Shown here piece by piece: positions 57,638 to 64,000 of a stretch of 64,000 nt of DNA. Numbering within the stretch: position 1 is the first letter of the stretch; each line of letters starts with the position of its first letter. The position numbers and the translations under genes were made by a program. The stretch comes from Candidatus Rariloculaceae bacterium (lineage in GTDB: Bacteria; Pseudomonadota; Gammaproteobacteria; Steroidobacterales; Rariloculaceae). A model generated the notes under the pieces. It made no database searches and was not told the DNA's origin. It saw only the letters and a list, made by a program, of their open reading frames with translations. The DNA lies in NCBI GenBank assembly GCA_965223375.1, contig OZ245000.1, positions 2,616,582 to 2,680,581 on the forward strand, read 5' to 3'.

Positions 57638-60103
57638 TTAGCAATGCCGCAGCGCCTCTGTCGCATCCCGCCTCGATGCGCCGTAAGCCGGCACGAAACT
57701 CGCGAGTGCGACGACTGTGACCAGCGTCAGAGCGACGCCAATGAAGGTTGCAGGGTCGGCCGCACCGACGTCGTAGAGAAAGATTCTGAGGAGATGTGTC
57801 AGGATCAGGGCTGCAACCGAGCCGACCAGCACCCCGACCACAGCCAGAATCACCCCCTGTCCGAGGAAGAGCCTGATCACGTCCCGGCCGCGTGCACCGA
57901 AAGCGACGCGAACTCCGATTTCAGGCACCCGTTCGGTTGCAACATAGGCCGTGACGCCGTATACCCCGATGCCCGCCAGCGCCAGTGCGACCGCCCCGAA
58001 GATCGAAACGAGGAGCAGGACGAAGCGGCGATCCGTGACGGACGCGGTCTTGACTTCGCTGAGGGCTCTGAGCGCAATCGGTACCAACGGATCCAGCGCC
58101 ATCGCGACACGGCGCGCAGCCGGCGCAGTGCCAGCGTTCACCTCGGCGCCCTGCATCACAATGTGGAACGCACTGACTGTGCGCGTTCGCTGACGATAGT
58201 CCACATAGAATGTCGGGCGCGGTTCAGTGCCAAGGGCGCGCTCCTGAATGTCGCCGACAATGCCGACGATTGTGAAAGGCGTCAGATCCCCGTCCATGTT
58301 GCCGAATTGAACCAGCCTGCCGAGCGGGTCCTCCCCGGGCCAGGTTTCCGCCGCGAGGGAAGCACTGACGACTGCAACGTGCGTGGTGTCGGCCGTATCG
58401 CGCTCGTCGAATAGCCGGCCATCGATTAGCGGGATGCCCATTGCTCCGAAGTATCCGGCGCTCGCGATCCGAAACTCCGCGTTGCCGACTCGTTCCGGCT
58501 GTCGTGCGAGTGTGAGATGGTCTTCGAAGCTCGAAATCTCGTCAGGACGTTGCAGCTTCACGAACGTGCCGTTCGGATCGAAACCTTCGCCCAGCGGTAG
58601 ACGACTCACACCACCGACTCGCTCGACGCCGGGCAACGCGCCCAGCTGGGTCATGAGTCGTTCGATGAACGCGGCGTTGGCCGACGTGGCCGCGTCATCG
58701 CACGTCATGCTGTTCGCCGTCACTGTGCAGGGCGGGCGCCGCAGCCACAGGTCCATCACGATCCCGCCGTCGGTACGATAGCCCGGGTTCGTATCGAGCA
58801 GCGCGACAAAGCTTCGGGCTAGCAGTCCGGCCGCGACCAGCAGCACAACCGTCAAAGAAATCTGCGCCACGACCAGGACTTCACGGAATCTGTGACTCGC
58901 TGCATCGCCGCCCCGCGTGCGCTGACCGTCAGCCAGAATGGGGCGCAGGTTACGCTTCCTGGTGCGAAGCACTGGGACCAGCGCCATCAATGCCGCCGCG
59001 AGCACCGAGATCGCAAGCGCGAATGCGAGCGCGCGCCAATCGACGTCGATGTTCTCCGCGCGCGGCAACGCGACTGGGGCCATGAGCAGCAGTGCGGGCA
59101 TCGCCGCCCGCGCGATCACAACGCCGAGGAATGCACCGGCGAGTGCCAGGACGAGCGACTCGGCGAGAATTGCCCGTGCGATCCGGCTGACCGGGGCGCC
59201 CAGCGCGACGCGCACTGCCGATTCATGCTCACGAGCGAGACCGCGCGCGAGCAGCAGGTTGGCAACGTTCGCGCATGCGACGACGAGCAACACACCTGCG
59301 GCTCCGAGCAGTAGTGTCAGCGCGGCTCGCAGGTCACCCACGAGTCCATCGAGCAGGGAACGCACGTCGGCATCGACCATATCGGCGTCGTCGCCATGCT
59401 GCTGTTTCAGTCGCCGCGCGATTGCGCTCAGTTCCTGTTGGGCCTGGGTTATGGAGACACCCGATCGCAGGCGTCCTATGACGCGATAGTTGTGCGCCGT
59501 TCGATTCTCGGTCTGAACGGGTCGCGGCACCCAGAACTCCGTACCGGCGGGGAAGTTGAAGTCCGGCGGCATGACGCCGACGATCGTGTAACTGCGGTTG
59601 CCCTCTGCGACGGAGTGCGCAGCCAGGTCGTCCGTACCGCCGAGGCGACCCTGCCAGTAGCCGTAGCTGACGACCGCGCCCTGATTGTCGACCGGCGAGC
59701 CGTCGGCCCCGAAGACCCTGCCGCGCATCGCTTCGACACCGAGCACGTCGAAGAACTCGGGTGAAACGCCTGCTCTGATCGCGCGGAAGCCGGCGCCCGA
59801 TGAGACAACGGAGATCGGACCGGCATAGTAGGCCGCCATTGCGTCGAAGCTCTCGCCCTGATCCTTCAGGTCCTCGAAGTCCGGGTGCGAAGTGCTGCCG
59901 ATGTTGCCGCTTTCGAATTCGGTCCAGATTTCGGTTAGCCGATCCGAATCCGGATACGGCAGGGCGCGCAGCAGCACGCCGCTGACGACACTGAAGATCG
60001 CAGTGCTGGCCCCTACGCCGAGCGCAATGGTAAGGATGGCGGACGCGGCGAACCCGGGCTTATTCGACAGAGCTCGCACAGCGAGACGTAAATCGGCAAG
60101 CAT
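57638..60103 (-). CDS. ADOP-type duplicated MacB/FtsX-like permease
   Basis: 821 aa. Family-typical N-terminus MLADLRLAVRALSNKPGFAASAILTIALGVGASTAIFSVVSGVLLRALPYPDSDRL. Two MacB-periplasmic-plus-FtsX halves. No adjacent ABC ATPase. Confidence 0.85.
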   Translation of the reverse strand: MLADLRLAVRALSNKPGFAASAILTIALGVGASTAIFSVVSGVLLRALPYPDSDRLTEIWTEFESGNIGSTSHPDFEDLKDQGESFDAMAAYYAGPISVVSSGAGFRAIRAGVSPEFFDVLGVEAMRGRVFGADGSPVDNQGAVVSYGYWQGRLGGTDDLAAHSVAEGNRSYTIVGVMPPDFNFPAGTEFWVPRPVQTENRTAHNYRVIGRLRSGVSITQAQQELSAIARRLKQQHGDDADMVDADVRSLLDGLVGDLRAALTLLLGAAGVLLVVACANVANLLLARGLAREHESAVRVALGAPVSRIARAILAESLVLALAGAFLGVVIARAAMPALLLMAPVALPRAENIDVDWRALAFALAISVLAAALMALVPVLRTRKRNLRPILADGQRTRGGDAASHRFREVLVVAQISLTVVLLVAAGLLARSFVALLDTNPGYRTDGGIVMDLWLRRPPCTVTANSMTCDDAATSANAAFIERLMTQLGALPGVERVGGVSRLPLGEGFDPNGTFVKLQRPDEISSFEDHLTLARQPERVGNAEFRIASAGYFGAMGIPLIDGRLFDERDTADTTHVAVVSASLAAETWPGEDPLGRLVQFGNMDGDLTPFTIVGIVGDIQERALGTEPRPTFYVDYRQRTRTVSAFHIVMQGAEVNAGTAPAARRVAMALDPLVPIALRALSEVKTASVTDRRFVLLLVSIFGAVALALAGIGVYGVTAYVATERVPEIGVRVAFGARGRDVIRLFLGQGVILAVVGVLVGSVAALILTHLLRIFLYDVGAADPATFIGVALTLVTVVALASFVPAYGASRRDATEALRHC

Positions 60104-60148: not shown

Positions 60149-62686
60149 CTATTCCGCTCTGAGCGTCGCCATCGGATCGACCATCGCGGCACGGCGGGCG
60201 GGCAGATAGCTCGCGAGCGCAGCAGCGGTCAGAACGACGCCGATCGCCGCAAGGTAGGCTGCCGGGTCGAGAGCTTCGATGCCAAACAACAGCGACGACA
60301 TTGATCTTCCCAGCGGCGCGGCGACGCTAAGCCCGACCACGATGCCGGTTCCGCAAAGCGACAGTCCGTAGAGCAGAAACATCCTTCTGATTCTTCGCGG
60401 CTCGGCACCGAGAGCGGACCGAATACCGATTTCACGTGTTGTCTGCGAGACCACGTAGGCGATGACGCCGTAAATTCCGACGATTCCGAGTAACAGAGCC
60501 ATGCCACCGGCGATGGAGAGCGTCACTAGAGTGAACGACGTGCGCCCGAGTGAACGGGCGTAGAGGTCCTGCATCGTCCGGGGTTGGCCGAGCGGAATAC
60601 TCGCACTAACCGACCAGATCGCTTGACGGATTTCTTCGACGAGGCTCCCCGTACCCGCACGCTGCGTGCGTATCGAGAAGGCGACCGCTGACCTTCCCAG
60701 CAGAGGAGCGCCGTACAGATCCTCCGCAAGCACCGGCAAGTAGGCGAACGTTGGGGCCTGTTCGCCGAGGCTGGTTTCGCTGACGTCCTGTACCACGCCG
60801 ATTACTGTGCGCCACGCGTCCGTTTCGAGCGGAGTGCGGATGCGTTTACCGAGTGCGCCGGCGGGTTCGGCCGCCAACTCGCGAGCGAAATTCTCCGAAA
60901 TCAGAGCGACCCGGCCGCCCAATTCGATGTCGCTCCAGGATATATCCCGTCCTGCAATGATTCGCGTGCCCATGGCATTGAAATACCCTGGCGAAACGAA
61001 CTTTCGTCCACGCGCAGGTGCGAAGTCTCCCGGCGCAACTATTTGCCCCTCGACCTGCATGGGCCCGTTGTCGAAAAACGGACTTTCCATCGGTAGCAGA
61101 TTCGCAAATCCGACCGCCGCGACGCCGGGAAGCGCCGCAATCCTTTCCTGAATCTCTTTTTCCATTCCCGTGAATCTCGCGGGCTCCGGATACATAGAGG
61201 TCGGGATGAATATCCGCACGGTTTGAATCGTTGCTGGATCCTCAAAGCCGGGGTCGACGTCCTGCAAGGCCTGAAACGTCCGGATCATCAGTGCCGCGGT
61301 AACGACTAGCACGAAAGCAAGCGCGACCTGCGCGATCACCAGGATGTTGCGTGTCGCGCTCCGTTCGCGGCTCGTGCTCGATCCGCGCGCAGACAGGTCC
61401 TTGGTCAGCTCGAAATGCCGTACGTGTTTGAGCGCCGTGATGACGCCGATCGTCATCGTCGACATCAGCGCAATGACGACCGTAAAAACGAGCACCGGCA
61501 AATTGAGCGCGACTTCCTGAAGGCGTGGCAGGTTGGCGGGCGCGATGGCAAGCAAGGCCTGTAGAGAGATGTAGGCGAATCCGAGTCCGAGTACTCCGCC
61601 GGCTGCACCCAACAGCAGGCTTTCGACCAGTATCTCTCTCGCGACTCGGTATGGCACAGCTCCGAGCGCAGCACGGACCGCAAACTCCTGACGTCTGGCG
61701 TCGCTTCTGACGAGTGTCAGATTCGCGGTGTTCGCACAGGCAATCAGCAGCACTGCTCCGATCGCACTCATCAGAATCCAAAGCGTACTCGCCACTCCCC
61801 CGACCAGACTTTCCTTCCATGGACGGACAACGGGGGTCATCCCTACGTCGTCAATCGCGTCCCGTGTCAGTCCCGGGAAAAGGGGCCATGCGTCGAGCCA
61901 GACGTCCCACATGCGCTCGAGATCGGCGTGAGCGTCGGTCGGCGTCGTTGCGGGCTTGAGGCGTGCAAAGGTCTGAAAGCTGAAATTCGCCCGGATCGTT
62001 TGCGCCGCCGGATCGAGTCGTATCGCCAGGATCAGATCGGGTTCTTGCGGTAGCGCGAGGAAACTGAAGTCGGGCGGCATGATGCCGACGACCCGAGAAG
62101 GGCCCGAGAGAGGCAGCGTGCCCGCGCCGCCCGGTGCTTCGATCGACAGGTCGCGCCCGAGTATGGAGTCGTCACCGCCGAAGCGGCGTTGCCAGAACGA
62201 GTGCGAAAGAATTACCGGCAGCGGACCTGCGCTTCCCGGCCCGTGCTCCTGCTCAGTGAAACCACGACCCCGCATCGGCTGTACGCCCAGCGCCTGGAGG
62301 GTGCCTTGTGTCACCTGGAGAGACCGCACCCGCTCCGGTTCACCCAGACCTGTCAGCGTGACATCCCCGGCCTGCCACATACCGATGCCGTCGAACGTCC
62401 GATTCTCTTCTCGGTAAGTAAAGAACATCGACGGATCGGAACCACCGAGGCTCGCGTTAGGGATACCGGTGGGCAGGTACTGGATACTCACCAACGCATC
62501 TGATTCCGGGAATGGCAAGGGCTTGACGAGTACGGAGTAGACGACGCTGAAGATCGCGGTGGTCGCACCGATGCCGATTGCGAGCGTGAGCGCGCCGGCG
62601 AGCGAGAAGCCAGGTTGCCGTGCGAGGCCGCGCAGCGCACGGCGCAGATCGTGACCCACGGAATCGAAACGGTACATGATGCTCAT
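60149..62686 (-). CDS. ADOP-type duplicated MacB/FtsX-like permease (paralogue)
   Basis: 845 aa. HDLRRALRGLARQPGFSLAGALTLAIGIGATTAIFSVVYSVLVKPLPFPESDALV. Same two-half architecture. GC is visibly lower (~55-60% in sampled lines) than upstream genes. Confidence 0.85.
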   Translation of the reverse strand: MSIMYRFDSVGHDLRRALRGLARQPGFSLAGALTLAIGIGATTAIFSVVYSVLVKPLPFPESDALVSIQYLPTGIPNASLGGSDPSMFFTYREENRTFDGIGMWQAGDVTLTGLGEPERVRSLQVTQGTLQALGVQPMRGRGFTEQEHGPGSAGPLPVILSHSFWQRRFGGDDSILGRDLSIEAPGGAGTLPLSGPSRVVGIMPPDFSFLALPQEPDLILAIRLDPAAQTIRANFSFQTFARLKPATTPTDAHADLERMWDVWLDAWPLFPGLTRDAIDDVGMTPVVRPWKESLVGGVASTLWILMSAIGAVLLIACANTANLTLVRSDARRQEFAVRAALGAVPYRVAREILVESLLLGAAGGVLGLGFAYISLQALLAIAPANLPRLQEVALNLPVLVFTVVIALMSTMTIGVITALKHVRHFELTKDLSARGSSTSRERSATRNILVIAQVALAFVLVVTAALMIRTFQALQDVDPGFEDPATIQTVRIFIPTSMYPEPARFTGMEKEIQERIAALPGVAAVGFANLLPMESPFFDNGPMQVEGQIVAPGDFAPARGRKFVSPGYFNAMGTRIIAGRDISWSDIELGGRVALISENFARELAAEPAGALGKRIRTPLETDAWRTVIGVVQDVSETSLGEQAPTFAYLPVLAEDLYGAPLLGRSAVAFSIRTQRAGTGSLVEEIRQAIWSVSASIPLGQPRTMQDLYARSLGRTSFTLVTLSIAGGMALLLGIVGIYGVIAYVVSQTTREIGIRSALGAEPRRIRRMFLLYGLSLCGTGIVVGLSVAAPLGRSMSSLLFGIEALDPAAYLAAIGVVLTAAALASYLPARRAAMVDPMATLRAE

Positions 62687-63002: not shown

Positions 63003-63566
63003 ATGACCAAACTCGGTATTCTGCTACTGACTCCGCTGATTACAGGTACGGCCCTGGCGCAGTCGGGTGACGAGAGCGATACGGAATCGAGTCGCGGCTT
63101 GTGGACTTTGAAACTCAATCACAGCGTTCAGCGAGAGTTCGCTCTCCCAAATCCACTTGAGCAAGTCACTGTTCGTGGACAGGCTCCGCTATCTGTGCGC
63201 AGGCAGCGGATTGATGAAGCTGAGGTCGAGTTTTGGGATGCTTTTAACGATGCCAACAGTAGCAGCAAGTTTGATGTGACTTGCCGCATGGAGGCGCCCT
63301 TGGGCACCCGCATCCCGCATCAGGTATGCAGGCCTCAGTTTCTCGATGACGCGACTAGTCGCGCTGCGGGCGCGATGTTGCAGCTAGACAAGTCAGGTAG
63401 CGTCGGTTTGCAGCAGGTCGAATTCGGACAGGCCCACCACTTCAACAGAGTCATGCAGGAAGAAGTTCGCGGCGTCGCAACCTCTGACCCTGAGGTTCAA
63501 GAAAAGCTCGGCGCCTACATCGAGCGAGTGGAAAGTTACGACGAGGCCCGCGGCGATCGAGACTAA
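63003..63566 (+). CDS. hypothetical secreted protein in low-GC insert
   Basis: Signal peptide MTKLGILLLTPLITGTALAQS. 187 aa. GC is ~52% in sampled lines against ~65-70% elsewhere. No family recognised. Confidence 0.6.
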   Translation: MTKLGILLLTPLITGTALAQSGDESDTESSRGLWTLKLNHSVQREFALPNPLEQVTVRGQAPLSVRRQRIDEAEVEFWDAFNDANSSSKFDVTCRMEAPLGTRIPHQVCRPQFLDDATSRAAGAMLQLDKSGSVGLQQVEFGQAHHFNRVMQEEVRGVATSDPEVQEKLGAYIERVESYDEARGDRD

Positions 63567-63666
63567 ACGCGCTTAGCCAGAGGAACCGCTCGGAAGGGTG
63601 ATTCGAGCAAAGTCAGGGAGTTAAGTCGGAGCAGCGGAACGCTGCGGGATGCCTGGGAAGGGGAAA

Positions 63667-63987
63667 TGGTGGGCCCGGTAGGACTTGAACCTACGACCAA
63701 GGGATTCACTGTTTCCGACCGTTTCCAGCCGGAGCGGACTATCTCTTCACCCTCGACACGCTGGTCGGTCGGGTGCGGGACGCTCGAAGCCTGTTATCAA
63801 GAGCGCTGAAGCTCTCAGGTAGTCTCTGCACCTTCCGCCGGTGCACCGGCGGCTTGGCTCAGGGTTGCCGGCCCGCATCCGAACGCGGGGGGCGGTTCCC
63901 CTGAATTCATCCCGTCCACTCCGCGGATTACGCCGCGAAGGCACCTCTCGATGAGTCCCCTGCTCTAACCAACTGAGCTACAGGCCC
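63667..63987 (-). tRNA. tRNA-Ile(CAU) (ileX/tRNA-Ile2-like) interrupted by a group I intron
   Basis: Exon 1 (63987..63951, minus strand) is GGGCCTGTAGCTCAGTTGGTTAGAGCAGGGGACTCAT. Exon 2 (63706..63667) is AATCCCTTGGTCGTAGGTTCAAGTCCTACCGGGCCCACCA. Joined, they give a 77-nt cloverleaf: 7-bp acceptor stem with G1:C72, D stem GCTC/GAGC, anticodon stem GGGGA/TCCCT, loop CTCATAA, T arm GTAGG-TTCAAGT-CCTAC. The sequence is nearly collinear with E. coli tRNA-Ile2 as I recall it. Confidence 0.9.
63707..63950 (-). ncRNA. group I intron (IC3-like, Azoarcus tRNA-Ile type), 244 nt, no ORF
   Basis: It follows U36 of the anticodon and ends in G. GUG at intron nt 7-9 can pair with exon CAU, giving P1 with a U.G wobble. 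Other elements:
- P2: CUUCGCGG/CCGCGGAG with a CGUAAU loop
- P3: UUCAGG...CCUGA
- the GAGCCAAGC block
- P6: CCGCCGG-UGCA-CCGGCGG
- GAAGGUGCAGAGACUA (P7/J8-7) with GCACC (P7')
- P8: AGAGC-UUCAGC-GCUCU
- P9: CCGACC...GGUCGG with GAAA loops. Confidence 0.85.
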
Positions 63988-64000
63988 ATACCGCGAAGTC

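Follow-up and report, generated by a model that had tools for sequence, protein, structure and literature searches.

An Azoarcus-type group I intron with an extra hairpin in a gammaproteobacterial tRNA-Ile2(CAU) gene

Introduction

Close to one end of the 64,000-nucleotide (nt) stretch of contig OZ245000.1 analysed here (hereafter the window), two minus-strand segments read as the halves of a tRNA gene with a CAU anticodon, held apart by 244 nt. The locus raises three questions: what the intervening sequence is, which of the tRNAs with this anticodon it interrupts, and whether the arrangement is as uncommon as an initial annotation, made from the sequence, had suggested. We propose, with a probability of roughly 90%, that this is a gammaproteobacterial tRNA-Ile2 gene in which a group I intron of 244 nt separates U36 from A37. 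The intron would be of the Azoarcus type, whose setting is called Ile2.5Ug in the nomenclature defined by Williams and is counted there among four classical settings of bacterial tRNA introns (Williams, 2020). As such, it is nothing unusual: the arrangement has long been known and is very common in bacteria, and the present copy has the hairpin-bearing form that is common in the Gammaproteobacteria.

The split gene and its splice junction

The extent initially given for the split gene, 63667 to 63987 with an intron of 244 nt, proved exact, and its parts are the following:

63951..63987, minus strand: tRNA-Ile2 5' exon, 37 nt, GGGCCTGTAGCTCAGTTGGTTAGAGCAGGGGACTCAT, with the acceptor 5' strand, the D arm, the anticodon stem 5' strand and C32 U33 C34 A35 U36
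63707..63950, minus strand: group I intron, 244 nt, with the 3' end ...AAACAGUG, the last G of which is the terminal guanosine (omega-G)
63707, minus strand: omega-G, preceding the 3' splice site
63667..63706, minus strand: tRNA-Ile2 3' exon, 40 nt including the encoded CCA, AATCCCTTGGTCGTAGGTTCAAGTCCTACCGGGCCCACCA, with A37 A38, the anticodon stem 3' strand, the variable loop, the T arm, the acceptor 3' strand and CCA

When the exons, which are near-identical in 16 or more homologous loci, are joined in silico, ARAGORN recognises a canonical 77-nt cloverleaf with the anticodon CAU. The junction CUCAU/CGAGAG...CAGUG/AAUCC (slashes mark the splice sites) was chosen because it obeys the group I rules of a U at position -1, engaged in a U.G wobble, and an intron-final G, and it is the sole junction that gives a 77-nt CAU tRNA with U at -1 and G at the omega position. 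Both nucleotides are present in the window copy and in all 16 homologues aligned with it (17/17), which bears out the insertion 3' of U36, the U.G wobble and the terminal G that had been taken as group I hallmarks. The intron follows the fifth nucleotide of the anticodon loop, between positions 36 and 37, as the Ile2.5Ug setting specifies.

The Rfam search that had been recommended as a check returned family RF00028 (Intron_gpI) at 63963..63715 on the minus strand, with a score of 59.6 bits (gathering score, 50 bits; E = 1.3e-12), well above the level of chance, over model positions 1-253 of 253; this is the sole Rfam family match in the window. As noted early on, the intron carries no homing-endonuclease open reading frame (ORF): the longest ORF within it has 65 amino acids (aa), and its four small ORFs are without a Pfam match at E<=1, so that mobility of the intron, if any, would not be autonomous.

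Helix anatomy and comparative support

Helices were assigned on the window copy, guided by its relatives and by the consensus structure line of Williams (2020), and were then projected onto a 17-sequence MAFFT alignment of the window copy and 16 homologues:

63942..63953, minus strand: P1, CAUC/GGUG, 4 base pairs (bp), loop GAGA; invariant in 17/17 aligned sequences
63919..63940, minus strand: P2, 8 bp, GNRA loop GUAA; changes on both sides in 8/8 pairs
63908..63914, minus strand: P3 5' strand, CGGGAUG, pairing with 63776-63782; 100% paired
63830..63904, minus strand: P4-P5-P6/P6a domain, 100% paired, with P4 UCAGGG/CCCUGA, P5 CC/GG plus a distal stem, P6 GCC/GGU and P6a CCGCCGG/CCGGCGG; 5/7 pairs of P6a change on both sides
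63820..63826, minus strand: P7 5' strand, G-A-GACUA with a bulged A, pairing with 63736-63741
63776..63782, minus strand: P3 3' strand (P3'), CGUCCCG
63748..63775, minus strand: P8, outer stem CACCC...GGGUG and inner stem CGAC/GUCG
63736..63741, minus strand: P7 3' strand, UAGUCC, after J8/7 AAGAGA
63715..63732, minus strand: P9, 7 bp, invariant GAAA tetraloop; 6/7 pairs change on both sides

P1 is formed by the exon nucleotides C-A-U and the first intron base, C, against GGUG, with the U36.G wobble at the 5' splice site; it thus comprises 4 bp, not the 3 bp first counted. For P3, the alternative pairing GGACG/CGUCC was rejected, since only CGGGAUG/CGUCCCG covaries with the Burkholderiales copies, in which the helix reads CCGGGUG/CGCCCGG; two of its pairs are compensatory. 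P7 is, by homology, the guanosine-binding helix and is invariant in all homologues, while the outer stem of P8 is 98.8% paired and shows AU/GC/UA covariation at one pair.

Across the alignment, 97.0% of 1,057 cells are standard pairs, as compared to 35-45% when the 3' partners are slid by 1-3 columns, and changes on both sides occur in 25 of the 64 pairs. None of 500 shuffles matched any of the five pairing measures observed. Compensatory changes are found in P2, P3, P6a, P8 and P9, and also in an additional hairpin located between P7 and P3', described below. The comparative data therefore point to the core helices P3 to P9 and the P3/P7 pseudoknot of a group I ribozyme, with P7 itself being uninformative.

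Splicing or decay

By homology with the Azoarcus pre-tRNA-Ile, splicing would begin with the pairing of C-A-U and the first intron base with GGUG in P1, which would present the U36.G wobble at the active site. The 5' splice site, after U36, would be attacked by an external guanosine seated in P7; omega-G would then replace this guanosine in the pocket, and U36 would use its free 3'-OH to attack before A37, so that the anticodon loop is ligated. The exon-exon anticodon stem GGGGA/UCCCU would hold the exons together, and pairing between exons is reportedly required by the tRNA intron of Anabaena. For the Azoarcus pre-tRNA-Ile itself, efficient self-splicing in vitro has been demonstrated (PMC13168695).

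Several points weigh against the gene being split by an active intron of this kind. Self-splicing activity would here follow from homology and conservation, and P1, P5, P6 and P7 are made up of unvarying pairs, which provide no covariation signal in either direction. The minimum free energy (MFE) fold of the intron alone, which recovers P2, P4, P5, P6a and the additional hairpin and was not used as evidence, beats shuffled sequences only modestly (z = -1.9), as is expected because the ribozyme is pseudoknotted. The window copy is devoid of the 11-nt receptor motifs (CCUAAG/UAUGG) found in P5 and P8 of Azoarcus, so that tertiary contacts are not simply transferable from the Azoarcus structure. 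Transcription, finally, is assumed, since the promoter of the tRNA would lie outside the window: 13 nt separate the start of the gene from the edge of the window, and a scan of 63300-64000 found neither a promoter nor a convincing terminator 3' of the tRNA.

Were the intron instead a decayed, non-splicing relic, the tRNA would be a pseudogene and AUA codons would have to be served by a gene situated elsewhere in the genome. The window holds no other tRNA, and a few deviations in its intron would suit such decay, namely an L2 GUAA closed by C/U, an atypical P5 region and a differing inner stem of P8. However, every helix is intact, the differences from relatives that fall within stems are compensatory, the positions invariant across the 17 aligned sequences are all retained (as the definition of invariance entails), and joining the exons yields a perfect cloverleaf. 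At 244 nt the intron nearly equals the median length of the class, 243.5 nt among the metagenome matches listed, and it is intron-bearing genes of this sort that explain an otherwise missing fMet or Ile2 tRNA in the genomes of Chan et al. (2021). We thus regard decay as improbable and retain the split but presumably splicing-competent gene as the preferred reading.

Identity of the interrupted tRNA

Searched against the entire E. coli genome, the spliced tRNA finds its best match in the annotated tRNA-Ile(CAU), with 85.7% identity over the full length. This compares with 70.1% identity to the elongator and 63.8% to the initiator tRNA-Met, two comparators that were first checked against the annotated E. 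coli genes. The tRNA has the G1-C72 pair to which the early assignment to Ile2 had appealed alongside the likeness of its body. Three consecutive G-C pairs in the anticodon stem are typical of initiator tRNAs, and the anticodon stem of the window tRNA does not have them. Also present are the acceptor pairs C4-G69 and C5-G68, which we take to be identity elements for TilS in E. coli tRNA-Ile2. Judged by its sequence, the host gene of the intron is tRNA-Ile2, with a CAU anticodon on an Ile2 body that is neither elongator nor initiator Met, as the Ile2.5Ug setting implies. A tRNA-Ile2 with a CAU anticodon reads AUA once C34 has been converted to lysidine, a modification that would be expected here as well.

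If the host were an elongator tRNA-Met(CAU), the intron would affect the decoding of AUG rather than AUA. ARAGORN does name the spliced product tRNA-Met, though from the CAU anticodon alone, whereas the identities given above and, in so far as their presumed role in recognition by TilS is right, the two acceptor pairs favour Ile2. The Azoarcus intron (seed Aol6), which sits at the same site, has likewise been assigned to Ile2 by the isotype models of tRNAscan-SE (Williams, 2020). An elongator tRNA-Met therefore appears highly unlikely, and we continue with tRNA-Ile2 as the interrupted gene.

Annotation of the split gene

Run with default settings, ARAGORN calls no tRNA anywhere in the window, as expected for a gene with a long intron. 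In its intron mode the program sets the junction 2 nt upstream of the correct one, leaving a C at -1, and this shift recurs in more than 15 homologous loci (including L005, L029, L031, L042, L043, L079, L104, L107, L108 and L121); in some loci the resulting label is tRNA-Arg(CCG) instead of tRNA-Gln(CUG). That the intron-mode output for the window, tRNA-Gln(ctg) i(36,244), is correct, and that the gene is a tRNA-Gln(CUG) with an intron starting 2 nt earlier, has a negligible chance of being right, because this junction puts C instead of U at -1 and breaks up the invariant P1 (CAUC/GGUG), the body of the tRNA fits Ile2, the homologous loci all receive the same miscall, and ARAGORN split calls are known to need re-scoring across eight possible junction positions (Williams, 2020). 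The shifted Gln(CUG) junction is an artefact.

The practical value of the locus lies mainly in this annotation problem: default tRNA finders miss the gene and the intron mode of ARAGORN gives it the wrong identity, with the consequence that genomes carrying the intron appear to be without tRNA-Ile2, the decoder of AUA.

Distribution among genomes and metagenomes

A scan of a species-representative genome collection with the pattern GAAGGTGNAGAGACTA gave at least 120 matches, and in about 20 of the 120 listed a tRNA-Ile(CAU) gene is interrupted at the very site seen in the window. Among these listed matches, the short, Azoarcus-like form is found in two Betaproteobacteria (L004, a Polynucleobacter, and L117) and, to judge from the sequence of the 3' half, probably also in L026 and L051. 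By contrast, every gammaproteobacterial Ile2 copy sampled bears an insert after P7, including those of Steroidobacteraceae, Woeseiaceae, Rhodanobacteraceae, Azotimanducaceae, the cultured Lysobacter daejeonensis GH1-9 and several metagenome-assembled genomes (MAGs). Several of these copies share 77-82% identity with the split gene of the window over its whole length.

A second scan, of metagenomes and with the P7-insert junction GTGCAGAGACTACCTG, also gave at least 120 matches. At least 90 of the 120 listed are complete split Ile2 genes, with most of the others being cut by contig ends. Among the matches listed, intron lengths range from 225 to 367 nt around the median given above, and the nearest copy is 86.7% identical to that of the window. 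The 244-nt intron of the window is a typical member of an abundant class.

By these counts, the split Ile2 gene is not rare. They do not support the expectations of a new host lineage, as the host looks gammaproteobacterial and the Gammaproteobacteria already hold many copies, or of a structural variant, as the insert-bearing form is that of all gammaproteobacterial Ile2 copies sampled and of most metagenome matches listed. More than 100 distinct Azoarcus-related introns with a conserved hairpin were retrieved in this way, a set that could show how a minimal ribozyme gains stabilising modules.

Other host genes are also represented among the loci retrieved (L002-L121). Introns in tRNA-Leu(UAA) and tRNA-Arg(CCU) are almost all compact, with no insert and with CCUAAG..UAUGG in P8, the exception being an insert-bearing tRNA-Leu(UAA) intron from Myxococcota (L047), whereas those in Ile2, fMet, Asn, Phe, Thr(UGU) and Asp tRNAs bear one or two hairpins after P7, with two being typical of bacteria of the candidate phyla radiation (CPR). 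In a Clostridium sp. MAG (L088, CAMXJY010000005.1), an insert-bearing intron follows U36 of an initiator-like tRNA-fMet(CAU) (CGCGGGG...CCCCGCAACCA), its insert reading CUGG-AGAAG..CUUCU-UAAUAA-CCAG after AGAGACUA; two different tRNAs with a CAU anticodon are thus interrupted at one and the same position by closely related introns. Two further loci, from a Methanosarcinaceae MAG (L076) and a Saccharibacteria MAG (L066), have group I cores with a hairpin after P7 and no flanking tRNA exons, apparently inside protein-coding DNA, and the frame upstream of the latter (...FANGILVHNCG) resembles the C-terminus of an intein.

A conserved hairpin between P7 and P3'

The length difference from the Azoarcus intron, first put at about 40 nt, is in fact 39 nt (244 versus 205 nt), and its location differs from that first proposed. 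It does not lie between P8 and the 3' strand of P7: 34 of the 39 nt form a single uninterrupted gap in the alignment with Azoarcus, directly after AGAGACUA, and so separate the P7 5' strand from P3'. The Rfam alignment, which is independent of the former, has an unaligned insert of 35 nt at this point. An enlarged P9 had been held to contribute as well, yet this helix exceeds that of Azoarcus by only about 2 bp. Most of the additional length belongs to one element of 30 nt, immediately after the P7 5' strand and before P3':

63790..63819, minus strand: P7.1-like hairpin, CCUG-AGAGC-UUCAGC-GCUCU-UGAUAA-CAGG

In a set of 111 distinct sequences, the five inner stem positions are each paired in 110, with GC/AU/CG exchanges at two of them. 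On the 3' side, six bases are unpaired; they follow the motif U-N-A-U-N-A (UGAUAA in the window), of which positions 1, 3, 4 and 6 are invariant in 110/111, and they form an internal loop that faces no unpaired bases on the 5' side. The distal part of the hairpin varies from 6 to 46 nt. Such conservation marks a structural module under selection, most likely engaged in a tertiary contact, and the hairpin may accordingly be thought of as a putative peripheral element that stabilises the tertiary structure.

In the literature searched, we found no description of the insert-bearing Ile2 intron form as such. A broader proposal, by which these introns constitute a distinct subclass that is the usual gammaproteobacterial form, a contact made by the hairpin replaces the tetraloop-receptor contacts of Azoarcus P5 and P8, and the sole Ile2 gene is the one interrupted, so that AUA decoding depends on splicing, is tentative and on the whole doubtful. 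The single copy in the window adds little on its own; what interest remains attaches to the hairpin, as a conserved feature of the class, and to the annotation problem described above.

Genomic context and AUA decoding

The intron has a G+C content of 65.2%, the window one of 65.8%, and the neighbours of the tRNA are ordinary chromosomal genes, among them those for IlvA, a dihydroorotase, an Lhr-type helicase, a TonB-dependent receptor and a GGDEF-EAL protein. The closest relatives of IlvA are 72-73% identical to it, and the named ones are all from Gammaproteobacteria. Searching the window proteins against the homologous loci fetched revealed no useful synteny.

AUA codons occur in all of the 12 confident genes of the window, where they make up 39 of 9,607 codons and 8% of the Ile codons, which implies that a decoder for AUA is needed. 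That the intron-bearing gene is the sole Ile2 copy is plausible, because such introns account for the apparently missing Ile2 genes reported by Chan et al. (2021).

Next to the tRNA are two tandem permeases of the ADOP family (57638-60103 and 60149-62686, both on the minus strand; TIGR03434, 742 and 771 bits), a family named after Acidobacteria, in a genome that otherwise looks gammaproteobacterial. Converging on the 3' end of the tRNA is an ORF of 187 aa (63003-63566, plus strand) with a signal-peptide-like N-terminus; it is without an NCBIfam match, and its exact product is absent from the contig index.

Comparison with known introns

The closest well-studied system is the intron of Azoarcus olearius (BH72), recorded as 'Aol6.Ile2.5Ug' and assigned to subgroup IC3 (Williams, 2020), with a length of 205 nt that is also given in a 2026 cryo-EM paper (PMC13168695). 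We took its sequence from the seed alignment in the supplement of Williams (2020). Global alignment, another of the checks proposed at the outset, confirmed the homology, with 71.9% identity over aligned positions. The two introns share the host gene, the insertion after U36, the CAU/GUG core of P1, identical P7 strands (AGAGACUA and UAGUCC), a GAAA-capped P9 and the absence of an ORF. As for the sequence blocks that the initial annotation had ascribed to Azoarcus, GUGCCUU, GGCAAC..GAGCCAAGC, GAAGGUG and AGAGACUA are indeed common to both, whereas AAUUCAG is not, the Azoarcus sequence being AAUUCGG. Apart from the 34-nt insert and the receptor motifs, the window intron differs in P3, which is CGGGAUG/CGUCCCG as compared to GGUGUC/GACGGCACC, in its L1 of GAGA on a 4-bp P1, where Azoarcus has UUCG on a 5-bp P1, in its L2 (GUAA) and in the slightly longer P9.

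If subgroup IC3 is taken strictly, as a compact core without helices between P7 and P3' and with receptors in P5 and P8, which is our own reading of the Azoarcus and tRNA-Leu introns and not a formal definition, the window intron falls outside it, on account of the hairpin after P7 and of a P5 and P8 without CCUAAG/UAUGG.

Hairpins between P7 and P3' are modelled in the seed alignment of Williams (2020) for introns in Lys, Asn, Phe and Leu tRNAs and in tmRNA, while the sole Ile2.5Ug seed, that of Azoarcus, has no insert. The seeds Mga42.Leu.1Ug, Dba165.Lys.2Ug, Pam37.Asn.4Ug and Mba55.Phe.2Ug have their hairpin at the same place as the window intron, and in the first of them (ccug-agcuuau..auaggcu-uaauaa-cagg) the motif of CCUG, U-N-A-U-N-A and CAGG is the same. 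In common with the window they also have the AGCGYCC P3' strand and a AUGAGAUAGUCC type of J8/7. They differ in their host tRNAs and in the position of insertion within the anticodon loop, and Mga42 has a second hairpin.

Group I introns have further been described in the tRNA-Ile2 genes of Acidovorax and Burkholderia (Chan et al., 2021), where the same gene is interrupted and is likewise missed by standard tRNA finders. The Burkholderiales copies among our matches (L039, L048 and L053) are about 67-68% identical to that of the window and carry a variant of the insert, GGGUG-UGAGGAGCC..UCCGAUAAG-CACCC.

Introns of subgroup IA, such as those of phage T4 td and phage Twort, bear P7.1/P7.2 between P7 and P3' in the scheme of subgroup features of Michel and Westhof. 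These two helices have been named as class-defining peripheral elements (PMC3984707). The hairpin of the window occupies the same topological position. A chimeric origin from IC3 and IA introns was considered and rejected, as both halves of the window intron align with Azoarcus apart from the insert. Its core aligns with the IC3-type introns of tRNA genes, and to this core it adds a single hairpin.

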